Below the pieces are notes generated by a model, which worked only from the letters and a program-made list of their open reading frames with translations, was not told the DNA's origin and made no database searches. Below, piece after piece: positions 8,542-23,144 of a DNA stretch of 34,280 nucleotides. The stretch's first letter is position 1; every line of letters starts with the position of its first letter. The position numbers and the translations under genes were made by a program. This DNA is from Terriglobales bacterium (GTDB taxonomy: Bacteria; Acidobacteriota; Terriglobia; Terriglobales; Acidobacteriaceae): positions 1-34,280 of the forward strand of contig DATEGM010000204.1 in NCBI GenBank assembly GCA_035280085.1, given 5' to 3'.

Positions 8542-9291
8542 CTACTCGCCCGGATTCTCCGAAGCTGGCGCCAGTACTCCTGCCGAATTATCTTCCAGAG
8601 TGCGCGCAAACAGCACCAACTCCACTCGTGACGACATACCTAGCTTCTCAAAAATGTGGAACAGGTAATTTTTAATGGTGTGTTCGCTGAGTTTGAGCTG
8701 CTGGGCGATTTCGCGGTTGGATAAACCTTCCGAAACCAGTTGAGCCACTTGCTGTTCGCGCTTGGACAACGGGACCTTGCCGCTGGCTTCAACCAAGCGC
8801 GGCGGAGCCACGCGGGCGAAAGCGTCCAACACGGATTCCAACTGCACGCTGTTGGCCCAGATTTGCCCGGCATGCACCGCCTCGATGCACCGGCACAAGG
8901 AGTTGAGAGAATCCTCCCGGCAGAAAATCCCCTTTGCCCCGGCGCGGAAAGCATCAATTACCAGCCCGGGTTCGGCGGAGTCCAACAGCAGAATGGTGCG
9001 GATTTCCGTGGATTGGGCGCGGAGTTCTCGAACCGCCGCAAAGCCAGACAGAGATCCGTCCTGCAGGCTCGCGCTAATGAGCGCTACGCTGGGTCGGTTG
9101 GCTCTGGCTCCGGACAGTATCTGCTCGGAGTTGGTGGCGCGGGCCACTATCTGTATGCGCCGATAGCGCTGCAGCGCCGTGATCAACAGCTGACAGTTCA
9201 TCCGGTTCCCATCCGCTACCAGTAAGCGGACAGTAGAGGAACGGAAATTCTTTGATTCCGAGCTGCGGATTGTGGCTCGTCTCTCTGGCAT
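8542..9291 (-). CDS. NarL/FixJ(LuxR)-type response regulator with an atypical receiver domain
   Basis: REC-like N-terminal half (VRLLVADGNRMNCQLL...PSVALISASLQDGSLSGFAAVRELR...TILLLDSAEP...GAKGIFCRE) plus a C-terminal LuxR HTH (LSKREQQVAQLVSEGLSNREIAQQLKLSEHTIKNYLFHIFEKLGMSSRVEL). ATG at 9291 chosen; the longest ORF starts at TTG 9309. Confidence 0.8.
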   Translation of the reverse strand: MPERRATIRSSESKNFRSSTVRLLVADGNRMNCQLLITALQRYRRIQIVARATNSEQILSGARANRPSVALISASLQDGSLSGFAAVRELRAQSTEIRTILLLDSAEPGLVIDAFRAGAKGIFCREDSLNSLCRCIEAVHAGQIWANSVQLESVLDAFARVAPPRLVEASGKVPLSKREQQVAQLVSEGLSNREIAQQLKLSEHTIKNYLFHIFEKLGMSSRVELVLFARTLEDNSAGVLAPASENPGE

Positions 9292-9342
9292 CGTGCGTAG
9301 AATTAACAACTTACAGCCATCTAGGGGAAACCACTGAAATGC

Positions 9343-9376
9343 CTCTAGTGGAGGCTGTCCTTGGCTCTAGTGGGGC
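9343..9376. repeat. Two copies of CTCTAGTGG(A/G)G spaced 22 bp apart
   Basis: ctctagtggag at 9343-9353 and ctctagtgggg at 9365-9375, about two helical turns apart. They lie just upstream of the response-regulator start, in the divergent regulator/PilZ intergenic region. Confidence 0.6.
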
Positions 9377-9420
9377 ATTGCTCCTTCCCATCCATCAGGC
9401 TTCGGAGTCTGGCTCATTTC

Positions 9421-9449
9421 TTGTAACCCCAGTTTTTATTTGGGATAAC
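9421..9449 (+). promoter_or_regulatory. Candidate sigma70-type promoter for the long plus-strand operon
   Basis: TTGTAA (9421-9426), 17 nt T-rich spacer, then GATAAC (9444-9449). It shares the layout TTGnnA-N17-(GG)GATAA with the candidate at 3388-3416. It sits in the most AT-rich stretch of the window (9420-9540). Confidence 0.25.
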
Positions 9450-9585
9450 GCCTAATAACAGAGAAATACTTCTCACCCAAGATACCACCCAAAGTGTGTG
9501 TAATAATACCATGCTTAATGCCCTGCTTGGAAGTACTAATCCAGCTAGAGAGGCGTAGGGCAGGGCTACAGAGTAGTTCCTTTCC

Positions 9586-10002
9586 TTGAAGCTTGGCGTG
9601 GTTCACGTAACATGCTTGTATCCCGGGTCCCTGCCGGCGAGAGCGGCATTTTCAGTGGAACGCCGAAAATCAACACGCTTCCGATTGCGCTGTGAAGTCA
9701 CCTGCATCTGGCACGATCGCCATGGTGTAGCCAACACCATCATCGGTGTTGCCCAGGACATCAGCGCAGGGGGCTTGTTTATTACTTCGCCGGGTTGGCC
9801 CTGGGTGGGAACCTTTGCAACGGTTGACATTCAACTGCCCAGCCGCGGTCCCTTTGCCCAGCAGCTGCAACTGCATGGCAACGGGCGGGTGGTGAGGGTG
9901 GTTCAGGATGGTGCCAAGAGCGGCTTCGCGATTGCGGGAAAGCCTGGCTGGACCATTACCAGGGAACGCAAGGCCGCGGCTGCAACACCTGTAAGCCGAT
10001 AG
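9586..10002 (+). CDS. Stand-alone PilZ-domain protein (predicted c-di-GMP receptor)
   Basis: Both halves of the PilZ c-di-GMP motif are present: RRKSTR (RxxxR) and DISAGGLFI (D/NxSxxG). The longest ORF starts at TTG 9586. An in-frame GTG at 9655 would give MERRKSTRFRL..., a more typical PilZ N-terminus. Confidence 0.8.
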   Translation: MKLGVVHVTCLYPGSLPARAAFSVERRKSTRFRLRCEVTCIWHDRHGVANTIIGVAQDISAGGLFITSPGWPWVGTFATVDIQLPSRGPFAQQLQLHGNGRVVRVVQDGAKSGFAIAGKPGWTITRERKAAAATPVSR

Positions 10003-10126
10003 TTTGCAATGGTTTAAGTGGTAAATGCTGGACTAACTGAGAGGGCGGAGCTGTGCTCGTACAAGGCTTGCAAATGAATTCGGCCCTGCCCCTGAAACGG
10101 CCTAAGCACGGGACTGGAGATTTAGC

Positions 10127-12397
10127 GTGAGCAAGAACTTCGAATTGCTGCGACAAGCAGGCATTAATGCCGACAACGGCAGCGCCTTGGCGGCGCCGCG
10201 CCGGGAAATTCTGGTGCCGGAACCGGTACCGGTGAACCCCCTTCCGCGAGTGCGCGAGAAGAGCGGAGCAGAGTGGCTGCGGGCCTTGGAAGTCCTGCGC
10301 AAACACTGGCATCTTTCTGCGCTATTTGCGGCGGCAGTCATCTGTTCCGTGATCGTGGTAACTTTCAGCATCAAACCGGTTTACGCTCCCGTGGCCCAAC
10401 TGGAAGTGGATCCGCCTGGCGAGACCTTCTCGCTGGATGGAGGAAACCAGGGATACAGCGATTCGGAATATCTGGAAACTCAAGCCAAGAACCTGAAAAG
10501 TGACAGCCTGGCTGTGAATGTAATTCGCCGGCTACATCTGGACCAGAATCCGGCTTTCGTGCGCAGCGCCGAGCCGCGGCAAACGTCCGCAACTGACCCC
10601 GCCAACTACCAGCTGTCGCCCGCAGAAAACTCCGCCCTGGGCGCTTTCCGGGCGCATTTTACGGTGAAGCGCGATACTTCCAGCCGCCTGATCGCGGTGA
10701 GTTTTGCCAGCACGGACCCGAAACTGGCGGCGCTGGTAACCAACACAGCGGTGGACACCTTCATTGACGACACTTACCGGGACCGCCACGACGCCATCAT
10801 GCGCTCTTCGGCATGGCTGGCCCGTCAACTGGACGATATTCGCACGCGCATGGAAGAGTCCAACCGCGTCCTGGCCGACTATCAGAAATCCATCGGCGTG
10901 GCCGACGTGGATGACAACAAGAGCACGTTCACCGAGGAGATGGGCGAACTGAACCGGCAACTGACGCAAGCCCAGGCCGATCGCATTCAGCTCGAAGCGC
11001 TGCTGCGCAGCGTGCAGGCGGGAAGCCCGGATGTTCTGCCGGAAATCCGCAACAATCCTGTAGTGCAGCAATTGAGCACGCAGCTGGCGCAAGTGCGGGC
11101 GTCGCTTTCACAGGCGCGGGTCATCTACGGAGTAAACCATCCCAAGGTAAAAGAACTGCAAAATCAAGCTGACGAGCTGCAGTCACAGCTGGAAGGGCAG
11201 AAGACAGCAGTACTGGGCTCCATCCGCAGCAGTTATGCCGCAGCCAAGGCCCGCGAGCAGTTGATGAATTCGGAAATCAAAGGTACCAGCGACCAGCTGA
11301 GCCAGATGGCCCGCTACAACGCCCTCAAGAAAGAAGCGCAGGCTAACTCTGACCTGTACAACAACCTCTATGCGCGAGTGAAAGAGTCGGGAATCGCGGC
11401 TGCGTCAAAAACCAGCAACTTGCGCATGGCTGATCAGGCGCGGGTGTTGGATTCTCCCAGCTATCCCAACCGGCCTTTAGACATTGGCCTGGGCATCCTT
11501 GTCGCTCTGGCCGGCGGCATTGGACTGGCGTTTGTGCGCGAGCAGTTCGACACCCGGCTGTTCACGCCCGAAGACGTGCGCGACTGGATTGGCACCTCCA
11601 ATGTGGCCATTGTGCCGCTGTTCTTCGGCAGCAACGGGCAACCGCTTCCTCCTGGCCAATCGCGCTCCGCGGTTGCAGCGGGTGCCTCCGCAAACGGCAA
11701 ACTTGCTCCCGGTGTCCGCTTCCTGCTGGATCGGCCGCATTCTCCTGAGGCCGAAGCTCTGCGCTCCCTTTACACATCGGTCATGCTCTCCCGCCCGGGC
11801 AATCCGCCCCAGGTGGTCCTGGTTGTCTCCTCCTTCCCCGGCGAAGGCAAGACCACCGTGGCAGTGAATCTGGCGATGGCGATGGCGCAGCACGGCACAA
11901 CCTGCCTGGTAGACGCTGACCTGCGGCGCGGAAGAGTTGCTTCTGCCTTCGGAATGAGCAGCGAAGTGGGCCTGAGCGATGTCCTGATCGGCACCAGCAC
12001 TCTGGAGCAGGCGATGGTTTCTGTGGCCAGCGTGCCTAATCTGAACGTAATTCCGGCCCACGCCGGCAGCGTACAGGCCGGGCAACTGGTGTGCTCGGAC
12101 TCCATGCGAAACCTGCTCGAAGAACTGCGGCAGAGGTTTCAATTTGTGGTGGTGGATTCTGCTCCTATCCTTCCCTTCGCTGACGGCCGCGCCTTGTCCA
12201 ATCTGGCTGATGGATTGATTTTCGTGGGCCGTTCGGGAATGACCACCAAGGACGTGGTGCTGCGGAGCCTGGATTTGCTGCGCGAAGTGCACTCCGCCCC
12301 GGTGCTGGAGTTTGTGCTGAACGCGGCCGATCTCAACGCGCCGCAATACCGCTATTACCAGTACGCGTACGACTACTATCAGCCGGCGGCCAAGTAA
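10127..12397 (+). CDS. Wzc/GumC-like polysaccharide co-polymerase fused to a bacterial tyrosine (BY) autokinase
   Basis: 756 aa with GTG start and GGAG 8 nt upstream. TM1 (LSALFAAAVICSVIVVTFSI), a long coiled-coil-like periplasmic Wzz region, then TM2 (IGLGILVALAGGIGLAFV). The cytoplasmic P-loop domain has Walker A SSFPGEGKTTVAVNLA, Walker A' LVDADLRRG and Walker B FVVVDSAPILP. The C-terminal tail QYRYYQYAYDYYQPAAK has 7 Tyr in the last 17 residues. Confidence 0.9.
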   Translation: MSKNFELLRQAGINADNGSALAAPRREILVPEPVPVNPLPRVREKSGAEWLRALEVLRKHWHLSALFAAAVICSVIVVTFSIKPVYAPVAQLEVDPPGETFSLDGGNQGYSDSEYLETQAKNLKSDSLAVNVIRRLHLDQNPAFVRSAEPRQTSATDPANYQLSPAENSALGAFRAHFTVKRDTSSRLIAVSFASTDPKLAALVTNTAVDTFIDDTYRDRHDAIMRSSAWLARQLDDIRTRMEESNRVLADYQKSIGVADVDDNKSTFTEEMGELNRQLTQAQADRIQLEALLRSVQAGSPDVLPEIRNNPVVQQLSTQLAQVRASLSQARVIYGVNHPKVKELQNQADELQSQLEGQKTAVLGSIRSSYAAAKAREQLMNSEIKGTSDQLSQMARYNALKKEAQANSDLYNNLYARVKESGIAAASKTSNLRMADQARVLDSPSYPNRPLDIGLGILVALAGGIGLAFVREQFDTRLFTPEDVRDWIGTSNVAIVPLFFGSNGQPLPPGQSRSAVAAGASANGKLAPGVRFLLDRPHSPEAEALRSLYTSVMLSRPGNPPQVVLVVSSFPGEGKTTVAVNLAMAMAQHGTTCLVDADLRRGRVASAFGMSSEVGLSDVLIGTSTLEQAMVSVASVPNLNVIPAHAGSVQAGQLVCSDSMRNLLEELRQRFQFVVVDSAPILPFADGRALSNLADGLIFVGRSGMTTKDVVLRSLDLLREVHSAPVLEFVLNAADLNAPQYRYYQYAYDYYQPAAK

Positions 12398-12404
12398 CCC
12401 TTTT

Positions 12405-14396
12405 ATGTCTATCTTGAGCACACCTCGACTGCAGCAACAATCAGTGGACCGCGGGGAGCTGAACTCAGCTTTTTTGCGCTATCGCACCTGGCTGATCATC
12501 GCCTCCCAGATTGTCCTCATCATCTCCTGCTACTACTGCAGTTTCGGTTTGCGTCTGGACTGGCCTCTGAATCACGCCGATGACCTGGTATTTTGGCGGA
12601 CTCTTCCTCTGATACTGGTCGTTAAGCTCCTGATCTTCCATCGCTTCGGCCTGCTTCGCGGCTGGTGGCGATACGTGGGCATGAGCGATGTGCTGAACAT
12701 CGCAGAAGCGGCCGGGCTAAGTGCTGCCGTCATTTACGCTGTGGTCGTACTCGGCCTGGGGGTAACCGGCTATCCCCGCTCGGTGGTGTTCATCGACATG
12801 GCGCTTAGCATGATCTTCGTGGGCGGCGCCCGTTTCGTGGTGCGCGCCTACACCGAACGCGCCCGCCGCTATGATGGGCAGAAGAACACGCTGATTGTAG
12901 GCGCGGGACAAGCCGGGCGCACCATTGCGCAGCAACTTCGCTCCAACGCCGAAATGCCCTACTTCACTATCGGCTTTGTGGATGATGATCCTTCCAAGCT
13001 GGGACTGAACATCGGTGGGCTTAAGGTGCTTGGCACCACGAACAACTTGAGCGAATTGATCACCAAGTACCAGGCGGAGTGCGTTCTGATTGCCATTCCT
13101 TCCGCCCGCGGGCCGGTGGTGCAGCAGATCATAGACAAGTGCCGGGAAAGTAAGGTGACTTTCCGCATCCTGCCACCTATCAGCGAGATGCTGGACCGGA
13201 CCGCACCAGTGCGGGCCTCCATCCAGCAAACACGCAAACTGCGCATCGAAGATCTGCTGGGCCGGCAACCGGTGCGGCTGGAACTGGACAGGATTCGGGA
13301 GCGGGTTCAGGACAAAGTCCTGCTGATTACCGGAGCGGGCGGCTCGATCGGCTCTGAACTGGCGCGCCAAGTGGCGATCTTCCGGCCGCGGCAACTGGTT
13401 CTTCTGGACCGCTCGGAGAACGACCTCTTCAAGGTCGGAATGGAGCTGTCGCGCAAGTTCCCTGATTTGAATTACGTTCCGGTGGTAGGCGACATTCTGG
13501 ACGTTTCGCGCCTGCGCGAAGTATTCAGCTTGTACCGGCCCAGTTCCGTCTTTCATGCGGCGGCTTACAAGCACGTGCCCATGATGGAGCGGAACTGCTT
13601 CCAGGCGGTTACGAACAATGTCTTCGGGACCTACAACGTGGCGCTCCTGGCGCGGCAAGCGCATGCCGAGGATTTCGTCCTCATTTCGTCTGACAAGGCG
13701 GTCAATCCCACCAACATCATGGGAGTGACCAAGCGGATAGCGGAGCTGATTGTCCTGGCCCTGCAGCATAACAAGACCCGCTTCATGGCGGTGCGCTTCG
13801 GAAACGTGCTGGGCAGCAATGGCAGCGTGCTGCCGATTTTCGAGGAGCAGATCGCCAGCGGCGGGCCGGTAACCGTGACCCATCCCGAAGCCAAGCGCTA
13901 TTTCATGACCGTGACGGAGGCGGTACAACTGGTGCTGCAGGCCTCAACCATGGGCCAGGGCGGGGAGATTTTCGTGCTGGACATGGGAGAGCCGGTAAAT
14001 ATTGCCGATTTGGCAAAGCGGATGGTGCGGCTGGCGGGCCTGGAGCCCGGGCGGGACGTCGAAGTGGTGTTCACTGGGCTGCGCCCAGGAGAAAAGCTGT
14101 TCGAGGAATTGAAGCTGGACGGCGAAAACATTAAGCCCACTCCGCACGAGAAGATTCGCGTATTCGAGGGCGGAACTGTAGCCTTCGAACAAGTGCGCAC
14201 GTGGCTGGAGGATCTGTCGTCGCTGGTAGACGCCAGAAACGTCCACGAACTGGTTGCTAAGTTGGTTTCGATTGTGCCCGAATACTGGCCGAGCAGCGAG
14301 ATCATCGAGCTCTCGGAGGTGGACAGGCACGACCAATCCCTCGCCTACCGGCGCGCGCGTAATCTCCTGGCATCCTCGGCCAAGGAGATCGCATAG
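12405..14396 (+). CDS. Membrane-bound CapD/PglF/WbpM-like NDP-HexNAc 4,6-dehydratase
   Basis: 663 aa. Four N-terminal TM helices, a first Rossmann-like domain (LIVGAGQAGRTIA), then the catalytic SDR domain with LLITGAGGSIGSEL, FHAAAYKHVPMME, ISSDKAVNPTNIMGVTKRIAE and FGNVLGSNGSV. Confidence 0.9.
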   Translation: MSILSTPRLQQQSVDRGELNSAFLRYRTWLIIASQIVLIISCYYCSFGLRLDWPLNHADDLVFWRTLPLILVVKLLIFHRFGLLRGWWRYVGMSDVLNIAEAAGLSAAVIYAVVVLGLGVTGYPRSVVFIDMALSMIFVGGARFVVRAYTERARRYDGQKNTLIVGAGQAGRTIAQQLRSNAEMPYFTIGFVDDDPSKLGLNIGGLKVLGTTNNLSELITKYQAECVLIAIPSARGPVVQQIIDKCRESKVTFRILPPISEMLDRTAPVRASIQQTRKLRIEDLLGRQPVRLELDRIRERVQDKVLLITGAGGSIGSELARQVAIFRPRQLVLLDRSENDLFKVGMELSRKFPDLNYVPVVGDILDVSRLREVFSLYRPSSVFHAAAYKHVPMMERNCFQAVTNNVFGTYNVALLARQAHAEDFVLISSDKAVNPTNIMGVTKRIAELIVLALQHNKTRFMAVRFGNVLGSNGSVLPIFEEQIASGGPVTVTHPEAKRYFMTVTEAVQLVLQASTMGQGGEIFVLDMGEPVNIADLAKRMVRLAGLEPGRDVEVVFTGLRPGEKLFEELKLDGENIKPTPHEKIRVFEGGTVAFEQVRTWLEDLSSLVDARNVHELVAKLVSIVPEYWPSSEIIELSEVDRHDQSLAYRRARNLLASSAKEIA

Positions 14397-14489
14397 CGGG
14401 ACCATACAGCCAGGTATTTGCAGGCTCAGGTCTGGTCGCGCTGTCGGAACTCCCCTGGTTCAATTCAATCGGAGAAATTTCACCCAAAA

Positions 14490-15674
14490 ATGGCACAGAA
14501 TTCATATATTCCTTTCCACGTACCTTCCGTTGGCGACGAAGAGGTCGAGGCAGTAGAAGGCGTGCTGCGGTCGGGCTGGCTAACCACCGGGCCGGTAGCT
14601 TTAGCGTTTGAAACCGAATTTGCCCGGTATGTGGGTTGCAAGCACGCCCTGGCCGTGAATTCGGGCACCGCCGCGCTGCAGTTGGCGTTAGACGCCATTG
14701 GCTTGAGAGAAGGGGATGAGGTCCTCATACCGACTTACACATTCACAGCCACCGGGGAGGTCATTACCTATTTCGGGGCGAAGCCGGTCCTGTGCGACAG
14801 TGTGAGCGGGGGATTCAATCTTGACTCCGAAGCCGCCGCAGGCCTTATTACCGAACGCACACGCGCCATCATCCCGGTGCACGTTGGCGGTGAAACATGC
14901 AACATGACTGCTTTGCGAGACCTGGCTAAGCGCTACAACTTAAAGGTACTCGAAGATGCGGCGCATGCTCTGCCCGCCAGCTGGGAAGGACAGCGAGTCG
15001 GCACTATTTCCGAGTTGACCGCCTTCAGCTTCTACGCCACTAAGACGATCACAACCGGCGAAGGCGGCATGCTGACCACCGATGATGACAGCTACGCCGA
15101 GCGGGCCGCTACCATGCGCCTGCATGGTATCGGCAAGGATGCGTGGAAGCGTTATACCCGAGCCGGCTCATGGGACTACCGGGTTCTGCACGCCGGCTAC
15201 AAGCTCAATCTCCCGGACGTCCTGGCAGCGATTGGACGAGCCCAACTGACCAAGTGTGACCGTTTTTGGCAAGAGCGTAACGCGATTGCACAGTTCTACC
15301 TGGAAAATCTCTCCCAAATTGAAGAACTCGAACTGCCGCCGACGCCGGTCAACGTCACGCAGCATTCGTGGCACCTCTTTATTTTGCGGATCAGACCGGA
15401 ACTCCTGCAAATTGGGCGCGATGAATTCATTGAGCAATTGAAAGAACTGGGAATCGGCACCAGCGTCCACTTCATCCCTCTGCACCGGCACCCGCTTTAT
15501 CGTGAACGGTTTGGATATTCGGAGGATGGGTTTCCGAACGCAGAAACTTCGTTTCAACGCGCCCTTTCGTTGCCGATCTACCCAGGGTTAATGCCGGATA
15601 TGCAGCACCGCGTGGTGGAAGCGGTCACGCAGATCGTGCACAAGAACCGCAAGCGGAACGCTGTTGCGGTTTAG
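14490..15674 (+). CDS. DegT/DnrJ/EryC1/StrS-family PLP-dependent sugar aminotransferase (ArnB/PglE-like)
   Basis: IPFHVPSVGDEEVEAVEGVLRSGWLTTGP, AVNSGTAALQLAL, IPVHVGG, LEDAAHAL, and FSFYATKTITTGEGGML (PLP lysine block). HSWHLFILRI and GIGTSVHFIPLHRHPLYRERF parallel ArnB-type enzymes. I chose ATG 14490 (MAQNSYIPF...) rather than the longest-ORF start 14418, which would add 24 non-conserved residues. Confidence 0.9.
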   Translation: MAQNSYIPFHVPSVGDEEVEAVEGVLRSGWLTTGPVALAFETEFARYVGCKHALAVNSGTAALQLALDAIGLREGDEVLIPTYTFTATGEVITYFGAKPVLCDSVSGGFNLDSEAAAGLITERTRAIIPVHVGGETCNMTALRDLAKRYNLKVLEDAAHALPASWEGQRVGTISELTAFSFYATKTITTGEGGMLTTDDDSYAERAATMRLHGIGKDAWKRYTRAGSWDYRVLHAGYKLNLPDVLAAIGRAQLTKCDRFWQERNAIAQFYLENLSQIEELELPPTPVNVTQHSWHLFILRIRPELLQIGRDEFIEQLKELGIGTSVHFIPLHRHPLYRERFGYSEDGFPNAETSFQRALSLPIYPGLMPDMQHRVVEAVTQIVHKNRKRNAVAV

Positions 15675-15677
15675 GCT

Positions 15678-16349
15678 ATGACCAAAGCAGCACAGGTTTT
15701 GAGCCAAGCGTCTTATCCGCCGGCCAGCGGCTTCACTGGGTGGAATAACTCATACCGCAAACGGCTCTTGGATCTGGCGCTGGCAGGCGTTCTGCTCATC
15801 CTCCTCTCCCCCCTGTTCGTCATCGTTGCCATAGGAGTCGCCCTCGACTCATCCGGACCGGTACTCTTCCGCCAGAAACGCATGGGCAAAGATGGGCGGC
15901 TGTTTTGGGTATTCAAGTTCCGCACCATGACGCATGATTCGACGGGTAACGGTCTAAAGATCACCCGCGCCGGAGACTTACGAATTACGCGTCTGGGCCG
16001 GGTGTTGCGGAAGACCAAACTAGACGAACTGCCGCAGCTCTTTAACGTGCTGCGGGGAGATATGAGCTTCGTAGGCCCCCGGCCAGACCTTCCGGAATTC
16101 CTGGAATCTCTGACGCCGCCTCAAGCCGACATTCTGTGCCTTCGGCCGGGAATTACTGGAATGGCGTCCATTCAGTACCGCAATGAAGAACAGTTGCTCG
16201 CCAATGTTGAACCGGAAGCCTTGCCGCGGTATTACTCCGAGCATGTTCTGCCGGTCAAAATAGGGATCGATCTGGAATATGCCCAGCGAGCAGGATTTCT
16301 TAGCGATATTGGCGTGCTGTTTGGAACTGTTCGGGCAATGCTGGGTTAA
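15678..16349 (+). CDS. Small (PglC/WbaP-C-terminal-type) polyprenyl-phosphate sugar-phosphate transferase, initiating enzyme
   Basis: 223 aa. One N-terminal re-entrant hydrophobic helix (LALAGVLLILLSPLFVIVAIGVAL) followed by GPVLFRQKRMGKDGRLFWVFKFRTM and KTKLDELPQLFNVLRGDMSFVGPRP, the bacterial sugar transferase family signature. Confidence 0.9.
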   Translation: MTKAAQVLSQASYPPASGFTGWNNSYRKRLLDLALAGVLLILLSPLFVIVAIGVALDSSGPVLFRQKRMGKDGRLFWVFKFRTMTHDSTGNGLKITRAGDLRITRLGRVLRKTKLDELPQLFNVLRGDMSFVGPRPDLPEFLESLTPPQADILCLRPGITGMASIQYRNEEQLLANVEPEALPRYYSEHVLPVKIGIDLEYAQRAGFLSDIGVLFGTVRAMLG

Positions 16350-16458: not shown

Positions 16459-17937
16459 GTGTTTTCCCGAATCGCAACGCAGAGATTCTCGAGGTTTTCC
16501 AGGCCATCTACGCGACCCTTGGCCGCAGGTTCGCGCTCGCATTCCGAAGCATGGCTGAAATCGGCTAGCGGTATTCTCGCCATTCTTGTGCTCGCAATCA
16601 CAACCGGCAATGCTATCGCGACCGAGAAATGGGTTTACGTTCTTATCGCGGTGGCGGCCATCGTCGCGGTGCAATGGCCCATTGAAGCTGCCTTAAGCCT
16701 CTATGCTTTTCTCGTGCCCTTTGAAGCGGTCAGCGCCCTCGGCTCCGGCAATGCAGGGGTCACCCTCAACTGGGCGGTTGGAGCGTTGGCCGGCATGGGG
16801 TTGCTTGTGGCTGGCATTGCCAAGCAACGCCTGTCAATGCCATCGCGCACGGTGCTGCTGTGGCTGGCTTTCTTGTTCTGGGGAATACTGACCATGGCCT
16901 GGGCGGTCGAACCCGCGGCGGCTAAACAAATCCTGCCCACCGCCGTCGCCCTGGTCTTCCTGTATGCACTGGCGGCGTCCTGGACGGTCACGAAAAAGCA
17001 ATTACTGCTGCTCTGCGGTTTCGCAGTAGCGGGCGGATTCCTCGCCGCGATTGCGGTCGTCTATCTGTACAGGTCAGGCGTGACCTATGGGACCTGGACA
17101 CAGACCGCGCGCGCATCCCTGATCGTAGCCAACCGGGAGACGAACCCGAACGGAATCGCCGCCGAGCTTCTGCTTCCGATTTCTCTTGCCGTTAGCTGGT
17201 TCATTTCCGCCCGCCGCCGGAGTGCAATGGTGGCAGCGTTCGTTATGTTCGCCATTATGAGCTACGCTGCCTTTCTGACCATGTCGCGGGCGTTTGTCGT
17301 TGCCTTCGCGGTCATGTTCTGTGTTTTCATCTGGAGGCTCAGGCTCAACCGCCGTCTTGTCACACTGGCCGCTGCCATTTTGGCTCTGGCTGTTTCTCTA
17401 CCTTCCCTCTTCTTCGTCCGACTTCAAGAAGCGCTCGCAACCCATGGTGCGGGCCGCCTTGACATCTGGCAGGCCGGGTTTGCTGTTCTGAAGGCCTACT
17501 GGCTGCCCGGCGCCGGCCTCAACAATTTTCCCGTCGTTTACCAGGCCTATGCGGGATACGCGAACGAGTTTACCGGCTTCAACCGCGGTTCTCACAACAT
17601 GTATCTCAATGTTACGGTTGAGCTCGGAATTGTCGGTTTGGTATTGATGTCGGCCGCTATGCTTAGTGAATTTCGTGCCGTAACCAAACTTCGGTCGGCT
17701 CTCGGCGGCACTCTGCCGCTCGTCACCCTGGGTCTGGAAGCCGCTTGCTGGGCAGTCTTGGCCAACGCTTTCTTTGGAGACATCTTGTGGAGCAAGCCCT
17801 TTTGGGTGAGCTGGCTGTTGCTGGCTATGGCGGTTCGGCTGGGACGCGAATCCGCCGCATCCAAGGAACCCGTAAGGGTGTCGGAGCCGGATTCTGGAGA
17901 GTTTTCTACCCGCTACCAGCCTTGGAGGGTCATTTAG
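16459..17937 (+). CDS. O-antigen ligase/polymerase-like (Wzy_C family) polytopic membrane protein, probable repeat-unit polymerase
   Basis: 492 aa with roughly 10-12 hydrophobic segments. A loop with AHNMY-like motif (FNRGSHNMYLNVTVELGIVGL) is typical of the O-antigen ligase/Wzy family. Context is next to wzx and wzc-like genes. GTG start. Confidence 0.7.
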   Translation: MFSRIATQRFSRFSRPSTRPLAAGSRSHSEAWLKSASGILAILVLAITTGNAIATEKWVYVLIAVAAIVAVQWPIEAALSLYAFLVPFEAVSALGSGNAGVTLNWAVGALAGMGLLVAGIAKQRLSMPSRTVLLWLAFLFWGILTMAWAVEPAAAKQILPTAVALVFLYALAASWTVTKKQLLLLCGFAVAGGFLAAIAVVYLYRSGVTYGTWTQTARASLIVANRETNPNGIAAELLLPISLAVSWFISARRRSAMVAAFVMFAIMSYAAFLTMSRAFVVAFAVMFCVFIWRLRLNRRLVTLAAAILALAVSLPSLFFVRLQEALATHGAGRLDIWQAGFAVLKAYWLPGAGLNNFPVVYQAYAGYANEFTGFNRGSHNMYLNVTVELGIVGLVLMSAAMLSEFRAVTKLRSALGGTLPLVTLGLEAACWAVLANAFFGDILWSKPFWVSWLLLAMAVRLGRESAASKEPVRVSEPDSGEFSTRYQPWRVI

Positions 17938-17983
17938 TAAGGACGTAGAGCCGTAAACTCCTTGGCTTTCAGGATCTCCTTTC

Positions 17984-19324
17984 ATGCCTCAGCTTCTTCT
18001 CATTGCTTATGGTTGCCCGCCGCGCATTGATGCGGGATCAATCCGGCCCACCGGCATCATGAAGTACCTCCCTCGCTTTGGATGGGAGGTTACAGTGCTT
18101 ACGCCCGAATTGCCGCCGGGCCCACGACCTCCCGCAACCATCATTGAAACCGGGTACAGCAATGTCCTCGATGAGTGGAAGGCTAAGATCGGGCTGGACC
18201 CGAAAAGCACCGTGCACGAGCAATTGCGGCTGTCGCAATCAGCCAATCCATCGTCCCGGCGGCTCCACACCACGCTTCTGGAAGCTGCCAAATGGGTGAT
18301 TGCTTATCCCGATGAGACCAAGGGTTGGATTCGGTTTGCAAAGGAAACTCTGTCGCGGGTGGGCCGGGAACTCAGGTTCGATGCCATACTGAGCACTTAC
18401 CCGCCGGCGCCCAGCCCCATGATCGGCGCCTATGCGCGCCAGGTTCTGAACTGTCCTTGGATTGCGGATTTTCGGGACCTCTGGGGCCAACAACGTCACT
18501 GGGGCGTGCGCCAGATTATGCAGCCTTTTTATGCCCGGCTGGAACGAAAAACCTTAAGAAAGGCTGATGCACTCGTCACCGTCTCCGAGCCTTGGGCGCT
18601 TCGGCTCCGGGAAAGGTTCCCGACGAAGCCCGTGTATACCATCACTAACGGTTTTGACCCGGCAGATTTTAGTACGGCTCGCCCGCCCCTGACCAAGCGC
18701 TTTTCAATTACGCACGCGGGATATCTTTACGATGGCATGCGTGATCCTCGTCTCTTGTTCGAAGCGCTGCGTGAGCTGATCGCTAAAGGTATGGTGGACC
18801 GGAACGATGTCGAAGTGCGCTTCTATGGCCCAGCCGAAGCCTGGCTTTTCCAACTTGTGGAGAAGTATGGATTGCAGGGCGCGGTGAAGGTGTGCGGCGT
18901 GGTTCCACGAGCGGAGGCCTTGCAGCGTGAGGCTGAGTCTCAGATCCTCTTGCTGCTGGGCTGGTCTGACCTTCGTGAAACCGGCCAGCACACCGGAAAG
19001 CTTTTCGAATATTTGGGCTCGGCCAGACCTATTCTCGCGCTGGGCGGTGCTCGCGGGGTGTTGACCGAAACCCTGGAGGAAACCCAAGCCGGCAGGCACG
19101 TTCAGAGCGCTGAGGAACTGCAGCAATATCTGCTGGCAGCCTATAACGAGTTTAAGCGCAGCGGTTCGGTTTCCTACAATCCTGACCAGCGCGCGATTGC
19201 TCAGTACACACATGAGCAGATGGCGTGCAGGTTCGCCGAAGTATTAAACGCGACCGTGGAAAATCGCCGCGCAGACTTGTCGAATTTGTCCTGCGACGAT
19301 GCTGTCGCGCACAGCCTTAGCTGA
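17984..19324 (+). CDS. GT4-like (GT-B) glycosyltransferase
   Basis: 446 aa. N-terminus LLLIAYGCPPRIDAGSIRPTGIMKYLPRFGWEVTVLTP and C-terminal GKLFEYLGSARPILALG block resemble GT-B sugar transferases. Confidence 0.7.
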   Translation: MPQLLLIAYGCPPRIDAGSIRPTGIMKYLPRFGWEVTVLTPELPPGPRPPATIIETGYSNVLDEWKAKIGLDPKSTVHEQLRLSQSANPSSRRLHTTLLEAAKWVIAYPDETKGWIRFAKETLSRVGRELRFDAILSTYPPAPSPMIGAYARQVLNCPWIADFRDLWGQQRHWGVRQIMQPFYARLERKTLRKADALVTVSEPWALRLRERFPTKPVYTITNGFDPADFSTARPPLTKRFSITHAGYLYDGMRDPRLLFEALRELIAKGMVDRNDVEVRFYGPAEAWLFQLVEKYGLQGAVKVCGVVPRAEALQREAESQILLLLGWSDLRETGQHTGKLFEYLGSARPILALGGARGVLTETLEETQAGRHVQSAEELQQYLLAAYNEFKRSGSVSYNPDQRAIAQYTHEQMACRFAEVLNATVENRRADLSNLSCDDAVAHSLS

Positions 19325-19387
19325 TCACTCCACATAAAACGACGTTTTCAGGACCGGGCCGCTTGCGCCCGGATCTTCAGGGCTCAC

Positions 19388-21559
19388 ATGACAGGCAATA
19401 AGAACGGCAAGGTCGAGATCAAGCCGCTCCGCATCGGGATCGCGGGCTGCGGCAAAGTCGCACGCTATCATGCTCAATTCATCCGGGAACAGAGCGACGC
19501 CAGGCTGGAGGGCGTGGCGGATGTTGCGCAGGACGCGGCTCGCGCATTCGCCGCCGAATACAACATTCCGGTTGTGAAGGACTGCGTTACTTCCCTGCTG
19601 GACGACGTTCCTTTGGATGTGCTGCATGTGGTAACCCCGCCTGCCTACCACTACCAGTGCGCCCGGGCTGCTCTGGACCGGGGCGTGCACGTGTTCCTGG
19701 AAAAGCCCATGGCCTTCACCGCGGCCGAGGTTACCGATCTTTACGAGCGGGCCGCGGCCGCGGGCGTGTTGCTGTGCCCGGACTTCATTCATCTCTTTCA
19801 CCCTCGCATGCGGGAATTGCTGGGTGCCGTGGAATCAGGAAAACTGGGCAAGCCGGTGCACGTTGAAAGCCGGCTGTGCATCAATCTGGAGGAAGAGACC
19901 CCGGATTTGCGGGAGGCCGTCGGCCTGCATTGGAGCCATCTGCTGCCGGGAGGCATGCTGCGCGATTACGCGGCACATGCGCTTTACCTTGCGCTTTACT
20001 TCGCCGGCTGGCCCAGCCAGATCCAGGTGACCAGCAGAGCTGGTGGCATTCTGCCCCAGGGGCTTCCTGATCACCTGACGGTTCAGATAGACGGAACCCA
20101 ATGCACGGCTACGGTTCTGCTTTCCTGCGGAATCAAGCCCTCGTCTCTTGGTGTGCGTGTACTCTGCGAGCGGGGTTCAGCCGAGGCCAGCTTCGACACG
20201 CAAACTGTCCTGGTGCGGGGGCAGAGCCCGCTTCCGCGACGCATTGCGCTGGCCACTTCGAATTTCACCGATTCCTGGCGCCTCTCCACTACCGCCGTGA
20301 GCAATATCGCGAATTACTTGCGCGGCAAGGTGGTCCCCTACGCCGGACTTAGAAGCCTGCTTCCCGCTTTCTACGCGAGCGTCCGCAATTCCGATCTGCC
20401 TCCCATCCGCCGTGAGTTAGCCAGCGCCGTCAGTATGGCGGAAGAGACAATTTTTGCGAATGCGCCGCAGGTGGCTACCCAGGGTGTTGGTTCGCCCTCC
20501 GTACAAACTGACCTTCGCCACAAGGAAAAAGTTCTGGTAACCGGCGCTGCCGGATACATAGGCAAAGCCGTGGTAACCGCGCTGGTGCAGAACGGCTATT
20601 ATGTGCGCGCGCTGGTTCGACCCACAAGTTCAGTGGAGGCACTTAAGCGGCTGGGCGTGGAAATTTTCTTGGGCGACGTTCGATCTTTTGAAGACCTGAA
20701 TGCTGCAGCGGCCGGGATGGATCTTATCGTACACCTGGCTGCGGGGCTGCGTGGTTCCGAAAAATTCGTAGTGGAGAGTTCGGTGCAGGGCACGCAGAAC
20801 GTCTCGCGGGCCGCCCTCCTGCAACGGGTAGAGCACGTCATTTACATGAGCTCCATGTCGGTTCACGATATGGCTGCCATGAAGAACCGCCAGACTATCC
20901 GCGAGGATAGCCCGCTGGAGGCGAACGCTGAGGTCAGAGGCGCCTACTCCCTGGGCAAAAGACGGGCCGAGGACATCGCGCTGCAGCATTTGGGAGATAA
21001 AAGCCCGGCGTGGACCATTCTCCGCCCCTCCCTCGTTGTGGGGCGTGGCGGGGATGCCACCGGAGCGGCGGGATGGATGCTGGGCCGCAATCTGGTTTGC
21101 CTCAGCAGCCCGCGGAAGCGCTTGTTGCTGATCCACGTGGAGGATGTCGCGGCCGCGATCGTACAAATCATCCAGCACAAAAGCACGCGCGGGAGAATCT
21201 ATACTCTCTCCCAGCCCGAACGCATTACGCTGCGGCAATACGTGAACGCGTGCATTCGGACGCAGCACGACGTGCGCGCCATCTATGTTCCCTACTGGGT
21301 CGCCATGCTGGGAGTAGCCGCAGCCAAAACAGCTAAGAAACTACTCGGACGCGGACCCAGCCTGAACCGGCGGCGGTTACTCTCTGTCTATCGCAATTTG
21401 AATGCGGATTGTGAACGGCTACGCCAGGACACCGGCTGGCAACCCGCCCCAGGGTTGCTGCAGCGGCTGGGAGCTGCTGGCGAGAGTCAGGTTATTGAAC
21501 AGCAGCCCGCGATCAGCCAGATGACTGCGGCCGAAATTGATGTCCCGACCACGACCTAA
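19388..21559 (+). CDS. Bifunctional fusion: N-terminal Gfo/Idh/MocA oxidoreductase plus C-terminal NAD(P)-dependent SDR epimerase/dehydratase-like domain
   Basis: 723 aa. N-terminal half has LRIGIAGCGKVARYHAQFI...VVTPPAYHYQCARAALDRGVHVFLEKPMA (Gfo/Idh/MocA Rossmann plus EKP motif). From about residue 378 there is KVLVTGAAGYIGKAVVTAL (GxxGxxG), LIVHLAA, and YSLGKRRAE (YxxxK). Confidence 0.8.
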   Translation: MTGNKNGKVEIKPLRIGIAGCGKVARYHAQFIREQSDARLEGVADVAQDAARAFAAEYNIPVVKDCVTSLLDDVPLDVLHVVTPPAYHYQCARAALDRGVHVFLEKPMAFTAAEVTDLYERAAAAGVLLCPDFIHLFHPRMRELLGAVESGKLGKPVHVESRLCINLEEETPDLREAVGLHWSHLLPGGMLRDYAAHALYLALYFAGWPSQIQVTSRAGGILPQGLPDHLTVQIDGTQCTATVLLSCGIKPSSLGVRVLCERGSAEASFDTQTVLVRGQSPLPRRIALATSNFTDSWRLSTTAVSNIANYLRGKVVPYAGLRSLLPAFYASVRNSDLPPIRRELASAVSMAEETIFANAPQVATQGVGSPSVQTDLRHKEKVLVTGAAGYIGKAVVTALVQNGYYVRALVRPTSSVEALKRLGVEIFLGDVRSFEDLNAAAAGMDLIVHLAAGLRGSEKFVVESSVQGTQNVSRAALLQRVEHVIYMSSMSVHDMAAMKNRQTIREDSPLEANAEVRGAYSLGKRRAEDIALQHLGDKSPAWTILRPSLVVGRGGDATGAAGWMLGRNLVCLSSPRKRLLLIHVEDVAAAIVQIIQHKSTRGRIYTLSQPERITLRQYVNACIRTQHDVRAIYVPYWVAMLGVAAAKTAKKLLGRGPSLNRRRLLSVYRNLNADCERLRQDTGWQPAPGLLQRLGAAGESQVIEQQPAISQMTAAEIDVPTTT

Positions 21560-21587
21560 GTTTTTCTTGAACCTGCTCCGTTTCTAA

Positions 21588-23144
21588 ATGCCCTCAAGAC
21601 CGCGCATTCGACGCATCGCCGGGAATATCTTCTCCAACTGGGTCGCCCTGGTCCTGGGGATGATAGTGGCATTTTTCCTGATGCCCTTCGTTGTCCATCA
21701 CCTGGGCAACGTAGCCTATGGCGTATGGGTACTGGTAGTTTCGCTGAACTCCTACATGGGGTTGCTGGATTTGGGGCTGCGCGGAGCAGTAACCCGTTTC
21801 GTTTCGAAGGGCGCCACCCAGGGAAACCATGATGAATCGTCGGAGGCCGCTTCCGGCGCTCTCTGGATTCGACTCTGGTTGAGCATTGCCATCCTGCTTA
21901 CCAGCATCGGATTCGCATCGGTATTTACCCGTTTGTTCCAGGTTCCCCCCAGCCTGGCCTGGGACGCACGCTGGGCAATTCTGGCCACCGCCGCTGGCTT
22001 GGCGGTCACCCTCTGCAGCGGAGTTTTCGGCGGGGTCCTGGCGGCGCTGCACCGCTTTGAGCTTCTCAGCACCGTCTCCATTACGCAGAACCTTTTGCGA
22101 GCCGGCGGAATTGTGCTGCTGCTCGAGTACCATCACGGCATCCTGGCTCTGGCGTTGTGGGAACTCACTACGACCATAGTGGCCAGTTGCTTGCAAATTT
22201 ATCTTTGTTTCCATGGCTATTCTGAGCTCCGGATCCACCTGGGGATGCCAAGTCGGGCAGTCTTGCGCAAGCTCTGGGGCTACAGTTTTTATGTGTTCGT
22301 CATCAACGTCGCGCTGCAATTGGTGTACTACACCGATAACCTTGTGGTGGGCGCCTTCGTCAGCGCGACGGCCGTAACCTTCTATGCGATCGGGGGAACG
22401 CTAATCGGCTATGCAAGGCAGGTGGTGGGTTCCATGACCACTACCTTCACACCTTTAGCCAGCACCTTCGAGGCCGAGGGCAGTGAACGTAGTCTGCGGC
22501 AGTTGCTGATCCATGGCACGCGCGCCGCTCTGGTCGTCTCCTTGCCCATTGAGCTTGCCCTCTTCCTGCGCGGCGAGACATTTATCAATTTGTGGATGGG
22601 CGCCGAGTATGCGCGCTCGTCGGGTACGGTGCTGCGGGTTCTGTTGATTTCACTGATCGTGAGCACCGGGAGCGCCGCCGCCTGCGGCATCGTGTATGGC
22701 ATGGAAAAGCATCGCCGGGTGGCGCTGTGGGGAATACTGGAAGGCGCCGCCAATCTGAGCCTGAGCATCTTCCTGGTGCGCCGGATCGGGATATACGGCG
22801 TGGCTTGGGGTACCACCATTCCCAGCGTCTTCGTCGAGCTCTTCCTATGGCCGCCCTTTGTTTGCGGCCTGGTTGCCATTTCCATCCGCCGGTATTTGTG
22901 GCAAACCTGGGGCCGAACAGGACTGGCGGTGCTGCCCTTCGCCGTGGGCTGCTATATGACGGAGCGCTTCTGGCCGGTTCACAGCCTGCCCTTCTTTTTT
23001 ACTCAAATTGCAGCTGTACTGCCGCTGTTCGCGCTGGGGCTGGCCGTGATGTACCGCAAAGAAATTATGACGATATGGAGGGCGCGCGCGAAGTCAGCAG
23101 CGCCCACGCCGGAGCTTGTCGCTGTGCCGGCGAGGAACGAGTAA
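21588..23144 (+). CDS. wzx: Wzx-type oligosaccharide flippase (MOP/polysaccharide biosynthesis protein family)
   Basis: 518 aa, about 12-14 TM segments. The N-terminus IRRIAGNIFSNWVALVLGMIVAFFLMPFVVHHLGNVAYGVWVLVVSL is the typical Polysacc_synt/MOP start. Confidence 0.8.
   Translation: MPSRPRIRRIAGNIFSNWVALVLGMIVAFFLMPFVVHHLGNVAYGVWVLVVSLNSYMGLLDLGLRGAVTRFVSKGATQGNHDESSEAASGALWIRLWLSIAILLTSIGFASVFTRLFQVPPSLAWDARWAILATAAGLAVTLCSGVFGGVLAALHRFELLSTVSITQNLLRAGGIVLLLEYHHGILALALWELTTTIVASCLQIYLCFHGYSELRIHLGMPSRAVLRKLWGYSFYVFVINVALQLVYYTDNLVVGAFVSATAVTFYAIGGTLIGYARQVVGSMTTTFTPLASTFEAEGSERSLRQLLIHGTRAALVVSLPIELALFLRGETFINLWMGAEYARSSGTVLRVLLISLIVSTGSAAACGIVYGMEKHRRVALWGILEGAANLSLSIFLVRRIGIYGVAWGTTIPSVFVELFLWPPFVCGLVAISIRRYLWQTWGRTGLAVLPFAVGCYMTERFWPVHSLPFFFTQIAAVLPLFALGLAVMYRKEIMTIWRARAKSAAPTPELVAVPARNE

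Follow-up and report, generated by a model that had tools for sequence, protein, structure and literature searches.

A stand-alone PilZ gene, putatively encoding a c-di-GMP receptor, leads a Wzx/Wzy-type exopolysaccharide locus in a Terriglobales bacterium

The DNA analysed here, referred to throughout as the window, is a stretch of 34,280 nucleotides that makes up contig C204 of a metagenome-assembled genome (3.68 Mb, 66% complete) of a Terriglobales bacterium, and at 9655-10002 of its forward strand it encodes a small stand-alone PilZ protein at the head of a long array of exopolysaccharide (EPS) genes of the Wzx/Wzy type. Conserved synteny and phylogeny make it quite probable that this protein is a receptor of cyclic di-GMP (c-di-GMP) dedicated to this polysaccharide locus. 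More tentatively, and with somewhat less than even confidence, we propose that it acts at the regulatory head of the locus, either on a divergently encoded regulator devoid of a phospho-acceptor or on an UpxY-type antiterminator, making the output of the locus c-di-GMP-dependent; that the protein binds c-di-GMP, which partner it has and in which direction the effect goes are what we infer here. Control of polysaccharide production by c-di-GMP is known mainly through receptors built into synthase-dependent machinery or through nucleotide-binding transcription factors. The novelty would thus reside in the context, and probably in the target: a stand-alone leader PilZ in a Wzx/Wzy locus, placed beside an acceptor-less VpsT-like regulator and a site resembling the ops element.

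The open reading frame (ORF) at 9586-10002 (+) matches the Pfam PilZ family PF07238 at 29.9 bits against a cut-off of 22.5 (E 7e-7, residues 25-114), and both PilZ motifs, RxxxR in the form RRKSTR (RKSTR) and (D/N)xSxxG in the form DISAGG, are retained in ten homologues of 54-91% identity. A sequence-only reading that preceded this analysis had taken the ORF in its longest form, from TTG 9586; that frame exists, but its start is probably GTG 9655, yielding a protein of 115 amino acids (aa), because the alignment of the same homologues begins at (M/V)ERRKSTRF, with variable residues N-terminal of it, and the DNA 5' of 9655 differs among orthologous loci by indels that would disrupt the PilZ frame. 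No clear Shine-Dalgarno sequence precedes GTG 9655. The AlphaFold2 model of the protein (predicted local distance difference test, pLDDT, 76.5) is an all-beta barrel of 7 strands whose best Foldseek matches in the PDB are MotI/DgrA and the PilZ domains of BcsA, YcgR and Alg44, with template-modelling (TM) scores of 0.5-0.6; a PilZ profile compared with the sequences of solved structures gave no meaningful match, and the fold search was needed instead. Ratios of non-synonymous to synonymous substitution rates (dN/dS) against four orthologues amounted to 0.08-0.24, and the protein is, as judged from these values, under purifying selection that we would call strong. The window ORF is a genuine stand-alone PilZ protein and an ordinary member of its family, in agreement with the earlier claim that an intact PilZ gene heads the array.

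Leader-gene PilZ proteins of EPS loci, hereafter head PilZ, were collected to a total of 23, representing three types of paralogous loci (A, B and C, the window being type A) and at least 7 genera. It can be asked whether proteins of this group still bind c-di-GMP at all or have become nucleotide-independent structural or regulatory subunits. The modest Pfam score of 29.9 bits would fit the latter, and so would the replacement of the Ser of DxSxxG by Gly or Cys in 4 of the 23 head PilZ. On the other side, RxxxR is present in 23/23, both motifs are intact in the window protein and in every member of types A, B and C, and purifying selection on the window gene is strong, so that we regard a loss of nucleotide binding as very unlikely. 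The four Ser-less proteins belong to other genera (L075, L076, L077 and L078, with the PilZ gene at about 9000-9320 of each locus); they keep RxxxR, show the degenerate forms DIGIGG, SVGLGG, DVGLDG and DICVTG, and their affinity for c-di-GMP may be weakened or altered. The genome of the window itself holds at least 33 PilZ matches and 15 GGDEF matches, indicating that c-di-GMP signalling is present in this bacterium.

Since a genome only 66% complete already has 33 PilZ matches, one adjacency between a PilZ gene and EPS genes could be coincidence; chance is ruled out by the synteny conserved among relatives. The loci compared all belong to a single bacterial family, many of them being closely related, and the counts are descriptive and not statistical tests; genes in the fetched loci were mapped with tblastn, blastp and home-made profiles, and a subset was checked against Pfam/NCBIfam. 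Type A orthologues of the window PilZ (58-91% identity), which come from metagenome contigs and from four species representatives, keep a regulator with receiver and GerE domains divergent from PilZ, wzc and pglF in that order. The same genus contains two paralogous modules in which PilZ is about 30-35% identical to the window protein: in type B the divergent regulator faces PilZ, a NusG-like gene and wzc, and in type C it faces PilZ, a NusG-like gene, wza, an outer-membrane protein, a polysaccharide co-polymerase (PCP), a separate bacterial tyrosine kinase (BY-kinase) and a phosphoglycosyl transferase (PGT). The window genome carries a type C locus on contig C97 and a third regulator-headed locus on contig C252. 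When a profile built from the three types was used to search a 150-genome sample of the order, 8 of the ten best matches outside the window genome (68.8-87 bits) headed PCP/BY-kinase loci and 7 of the ten had the divergent regulator, whereas the next ten (56-65 bits) included none at such loci and none with the regulator. In a maximum-likelihood tree of the genome's PilZ domains together with the fetched ones, all 23 head PilZ and one outsider fell into a single cluster (support 88/86), and about 20 changes were needed with shuffled labels against 2 observed; the tree is moderately resolved owing to the shortness of the domain. The association was confined to one Terriglobales family among the genomes searched, with 0 of 23 genomes in the sister family, and up to three head PilZ copies occur per genome, each at its own EPS locus. 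As far as synteny and tree can tell, the association of this PilZ subfamily with Wzx/Wzy-type loci is real and old rather than fortuitous, and the subfamily is small and apparently of single origin.

These comparisons also bear on the possibility that the window PilZ is a general c-di-GMP effector serving another process, such as motility or adhesion, for which the locus would provide the timing of expression and not the partner. At least 33 PilZ domains in one genome leave room for such a role, one member of the subfamily cluster lies amid acyl-adenylate and short-chain dehydrogenase/reductase (SDR) genes instead of EPS genes, and another heads a large surface protein with immunoglobulin-like (Ig) repeats. 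We nonetheless consider it quite unlikely, in view of an EPS association extending over three paralogous types and at least 7 genera, with as many as three copies in a genome each placed at its own EPS locus, and of the fact that other PilZ lineages of the same genomes showed such a context in 0/10 cases. In locus L072 (7724-14122, genome G059) regulator and head PilZ precede a Big_7 protein of 1169 aa with Ig repeats and a fragment of a transposase in place of EPS genes; this is a remnant left by rearrangement or else a case in which the same head serves another output.

The second constituent of the head is the divergent orphan regulator at 8542-9309 (-), a NarL/VpsT-like protein with a receiver-like domain (Pfam Response_reg, 31.2 bits against a cut-off of 30.2) and a GerE helix-turn-helix (68.7 bits). 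Its alignment with DevR places Ser at the position of the phospho-acceptor D54, DG at the acidic pair and Arg at the conserved Lys. The acceptor Asp is likewise missing from 45/45 subfamily members examined, which have Ser, Asn or Gly at D54 and mostly Arg for Lys. A VpsT-type c-di-GMP motif was considered and rejected: W[F/L/M][T/S]R was found neither in the window regulator, which reads IWANS, nor in the subfamily members examined, the fourth position of the segment being S, N, G, K, T or A and rarely R. GQ(I/V)W is invariant across the subfamily (the window and 45 relatives, L091-L130 and contig C252). Sequence searches of the PDB matched VpsT to the C-terminal half of the regulator, while its middle segment gave weak DesR matches and no VpsT alignment. 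Given that every member examined is without both phospho-acceptor and VpsT motif, the subfamily appears to require a non-phosphoryl input. We also looked for regulators without a nearby PilZ that had kept the acceptor Asp or the VpsT motif, and rejected the idea, all 45 being equally degenerate. The subfamily is sharply bounded, with 89 matches of at least 183 bits among 127 genomes of the family and a single weak one in the sister family (E 2.4e-31, well under the 183-bit line). About 24 of 40 further fetched regulator loci head EPS loci, and members of the subfamily usually face a Wza/UpxY/PCP operon that is transcribed divergently. Enrichment of other PilZ lineages 3' of the regulator was too weak to serve as support (7/40 loci within 2 kb, mostly from one genus and amounting to about 4 independent events).

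Regulator and PilZ are separated by a shared divergent control region and leader at 9310-9654, in which an alignment of five orthologous loci revealed a conserved non-coding block at about 9520-9600. The conserved box 5' of the type A PilZ genes in this block reads ...TACAGAGTAGTTCCTTTCCTTG, and types B and C (L025, L029 and others) carry another, GTGACTTTCGGTTTCTTG, about 75-125 nt before the PilZ gene; these boxes may be promoter or regulator sites. A sigma-70 consensus promoter was not found in the control region, and the idea that the leader contains a known RNA, such as a c-di-GMP riboswitch, was discarded, no Rfam family reaching its gathering score anywhere in the window. A repeat of CTCTAGTGG with 22-bp spacing at 9343/9365 is not conserved across orthologous loci. 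At 9632-9648 (+) a 5-bp GC-rich hairpin followed by TTTTCA, terminator-like by a simple scan and conserved only in part among orthologues, ends 6 nt before the probable GTG start.

The third constituent lies just behind the PilZ stop codon, where the ops-like element CTGAGAGGGCGGAGCTGTG with the core GCG-G-AGC (10037-10055, +) is conserved in five type A loci and represents a candidate loading or pause site for an UpxY/RfaH-type factor. Over these loci, whose PilZ proteins are 58-86% identical, 17 nt of the element are invariant, and the element is unique in the genome. Its conserved part GGGCGGAGCTGTG at 10043-10055, within the PilZ-wzc spacer, has a core in agreement with the published ops consensus, since GCG-N-AGC forms the non-template hairpin stem of both the Escherichia coli ops (GCGGTAGC) and the Bacteroides opsX (YGCGNAGCR) (PMC11685472). 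Types B and C as well as loci of other genera have homologous elements 3' of PilZ, 13/25 loci having at most 2 mismatches to a 12-mer as compared with 2.6% of random windows. A weight matrix derived from these elements located the site upstream of UpxY-like genes in 11/44 regulator loci without PilZ, at scores of at least 19.9 bits in those 11 and with a maximum of 17.1 in 1500 random windows. Conserved RNA structure in the spacer was evaluated and set aside (8 weak pairs, essentially no covariation), the element being better read as a DNA/ops-type site, and hidden divergent PilZ ORFs were sought in the long leaders of the PilZ-less loci with none found. The common plan of these loci is a regulator transcribed away from the control region and, in the opposite direction, an optional PilZ, the ops-like site, an optional UpxY-like gene and then the export and assembly genes. 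An UpxY-type antiterminator probably loads at the ops-like site, and the PilZ gene is, on this gene order, inserted into the leader between the promoter region and the probable loading site. On account of its position upstream of the conserved site, PilZ is grouped with the regulatory elements and not with the genes of the machinery, and its synthesis would be uncoupled from theirs.

Which of the neighbours is the partner is the question on which our conclusions diverge most from the sequence-only reading, which had envisaged a PilZ adaptor dedicated to a Wzy-dependent locus and acting on the Wzc-like protein encoded next to it. The dedication to the locus is upheld by synteny and tree; Wzc as the partner is not, as the PilZ-wzc adjacency, kept in orthologues down to 58% identity, occurs in one of 12 distinct architectures. 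In these the gene following PilZ is of the UpxY family in 6 (passing the NF033644 cut-off), wza in 2, wzc in 1, namely the present lineage, and another gene in 3 (a membrane dehydratase, an Ig-repeat protein and an unidentified gene). An UpxY-type antiterminator, Wza, an outer-membrane protein or a dehydratase may thus stand between PilZ and the PCP/BY-kinase gene, at distances of up to about 4.5 kb, and this gene is present either as a fused Wzc or as a split PCP and kinase.

It could still be argued that c-di-GMP-bound PilZ acts post-translationally on the machinery, at the cytoplasmic face of the Wzc-type PCP/BY-kinase or on the priming PGT as EpsW does on EpsZ, with polymerisation or export licensed only at high c-di-GMP. 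In the window PilZ is co-stranded with wzc, 124 bp upstream of it and with no terminator in between, and a PCP/BY-kinase accompanies PilZ in 8/10 of the best out-of-genus loci as well as in types A, B and C. The PilZ domains of BcsA and Alg44, post-translational switches within EPS loci, are among its closest structural matches, EpsW-EpsZ documents that the PGT of a Wzx/Wzy pathway can be activated by a small adaptor, and two loci retain PilZ and machinery in the absence of the regulator. Against this, direct adjacency to wzc is restricted to 1/12 architectures, the coexistence of fused and split forms leaves no constant form of the partner, the ops-like site would uncouple PilZ expression from the machinery genes, one locus has regulator and PilZ with no detectable Wzc, and the best 150 relatives retrieved from 1.84 billion representatives show no natural fusion to a machinery domain, all being short stand-alone proteins save one spurious 5745-aa match. 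We therefore hold action on the machinery to be possible but doubtful, and Wzc specifically to be an unlikely partner, less likely than the regulatory head.

The regulatory head is favoured because PilZ accompanies the regulator and the UpxY gene and not any one machinery gene, because the regulator needs a non-phosphoryl input, because the position upstream of the ops-like site would separate PilZ from machinery synthesis, and because there are precedents in UpxZ with UpxY and HapZ with SagS. It also fits the fact that c-di-GMP control of Wzx/Wzy pathways is commonly transcriptional (mBio 2025, PMC12802240). According to this proposal, a canonical single-domain PilZ adaptor would bind c-di-GMP and would be transcribed from the control region that it shares with the divergent, phosphorylation-independent NarL/VpsT-like regulator. 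Encoded upstream of the ops-like site, it would be produced each time the promoter is active, whether or not transcription reads through into the long operon, and it would bind a partner at the head, either the acceptor-less regulator, much as HapZ binds a receiver domain, or the UpxY-type antiterminator, much as UpxZ does in Bacteroides. Besides the Ser-less motif of four head PilZ, several points weigh against this proposal. Only about 1/10 of the regulator-headed EPS loci in the sample have a head PilZ; with about 90% of them lacking it, the regulator is not in need of a cis-encoded PilZ, which is, on these counts, an add-on and not a requirement. Two head-PilZ loci have no regulator, and the window locus has no UpxY gene, the two of this genome sitting on contigs C97 and C252 at its other two EPS loci. 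Paralogous loci have such a gene immediately 3' of PilZ. Moreover, we know of no PilZ adaptor that binds a NusG-like protein, and the characterised PilZ domains encoded inside EPS loci (BcsA and Alg44), to our knowledge, all act on the machinery.

Several known systems resemble parts of this arrangement. The PilZ domains of BcsA, the cellulose synthase, and of Alg44, the alginate co-polymerase, share with the window protein the fold and both motifs, rank among its top structural matches and are likewise encoded inside a polysaccharide locus with c-di-GMP-dependent polymer output; in contrast, they are fused to synthase-dependent machinery, whereas the window PilZ is a free protein of 115 aa in a Wzx/Wzy locus with an ops-like site before the machinery genes. 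HapZ and MapZ of Pseudomonas aeruginosa (partners SagS and CheR1, respectively) are stand-alone PilZ proteins of about 100-125 aa as well and act purely through c-di-GMP-dependent protein binding, HapZ targeting a receiver domain, but they are not found in polysaccharide loci and their sequence relation to the window PilZ is limited to the domain. VpsT of Vibrio cholerae, a LuxR/CsgD-type protein with an atypical receiver, binds c-di-GMP and activates the Wzy-dependent Vibrio polysaccharide (VPS) locus. The window regulator is similar in combining a receiver-like domain with GerE, in not relying on phosphorylation and in standing at the head of a Wzx/Wzy-type EPS locus, and its conserved GQIW segment falls at the position of the VpsT c-di-GMP motif, of which it differs in lacking the Arg. 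If c-di-GMP is sensed here, the neighbouring PilZ would be the candidate sensor, in a split version of the VpsT logic.

In the capsule loci of Bacteroides, UpxZ binds UpxY at the head of the locus (Saba et al. 2024, PMC11685472). Those loci also are long polysaccharide operons headed by an UpxY-family NusG paralogue, a GCG-N-AGC site and a small locus-specific protein, with several such loci in a genome, yet UpxZ is not a PilZ protein and is encoded downstream of upxY, whereas here a small PilZ, a putative c-di-GMP receptor, is encoded upstream of the ops-like site, and the window locus has the site without the upxY gene. It is tempting to speculate, though we find it rather unlikely on balance, that the head PilZ are c-di-GMP-controlled counterparts of UpxZ, or that they correspond to a VpsT sensor half which has become detached (a 'split VpsT'). 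In that case every EPS locus would produce a PilZ of its own from its leader, and the c-di-GMP-bound form, by binding the acceptor-less regulator or the UpxY-type antiterminator, would decide which of several polysaccharide loci is read through. The EpsW-EpsZ pair of Myxococcus xanthus provides a further parallel, namely a small single-domain signalling protein exerting post-translational control over a Wzx/Wzy pathway (mBio 2025, PMC12802240); EpsW, however, is a receiver domain that is phosphorylated and has a large monotopic PGT as its target, while in the window c-di-GMP would be the input and the PGT belongs to the small PglC type. Post-translational control of Wzx/Wzy pathways is poorly understood, c-di-GMP control being typical of synthase-dependent systems (mBio 2025, PMC12802240). 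Our literature searches found no PilZ gene in a Wzx/Wzy locus and no c-di-GMP receptors in the EPS loci of Acidobacteria, in keeping with the earlier description of this mode of control as little described.

The genes downstream of PilZ are co-directional to the end of the window and include several glycosyltransferases. At 10127-12397 (+) the first of them encodes a protein of 756 aa with the Pfam domains Wzz, GNVR and AAA_31 (P-loop), which exceeds the cut-off of the tyrosine autokinase family TIGR01007 (117.7 bits against 108.05). It reads GEGKT (Walker A), VDADLRR and VVVDSAP and ends in the tail QYRYYQYAYDYYQ with 7 Tyr, and is hence a Wzc-like PCP-2a/BY-kinase by virtue of its Wzz and GNVR module, its Walker A/A'/B kinase and its C-terminal Tyr cluster, as had been proposed from the sequence; no terminator-like site was found in the 124-bp gap that separates it from PilZ on the same strand. 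The Wzc proteins of types A and B (window 10127-10320; L025 8345-8560) share a cytoplasmic N-terminus that is unusually long (about 65 aa), opens with MS(K/R)NFELL and precedes the first membrane helix, and this segment is a possible docking site. There follow at 12405-16349 (+) a PglF-like membrane dehydratase, a DegT aminotransferase and a small PglC-like PGT (Pfam Polysacc_synt_2, DegT_DnrJ_EryC1 and Bac_transf), and at 16459-23144 (+) a Wzy-like polymerase, a GT4 glycosyltransferase, a Gfo/SDR fusion and a Wzx flippase (Pfam Wzy_C; Polysacc_synt, Polysacc_synt_3 and MatE). It is this latter group that types the locus as Wzx/Wzy, and with flippase, polymerase, priming PGT and PCP all encoded together the earlier assignment to a Wzx/Wzy-dependent pathway holds. 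No match to a Wza outer-membrane polysaccharide export (OPX) protein was obtained within the window; the type C locus of the same genome on C97 has one, and both other regulator-headed EPS loci (C97 and C252) carry Wza/OPX as well as UpxY genes. The window locus may rely on factors whose genes lie elsewhere.

Acidobacteria abound in soil and shape its aggregation through their exopolysaccharides, and the regulation of EPS synthesis in this group is almost unstudied. The conserved module described here offers a defined entry point, consisting of one small protein with four or five candidate partners. Should the partner be Wzc or the PGT, the window protein would be the first PilZ to switch a Wzy-dependent pathway; should it be the regulator or the antiterminator, the module would establish a new link from second-messenger signalling to locus-specific transcription control. 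If the head PilZ were indeed counterparts of UpxZ or one half of a split VpsT, they would add an undescribed second-messenger layer to operon-specific transcription elongation or initiation.

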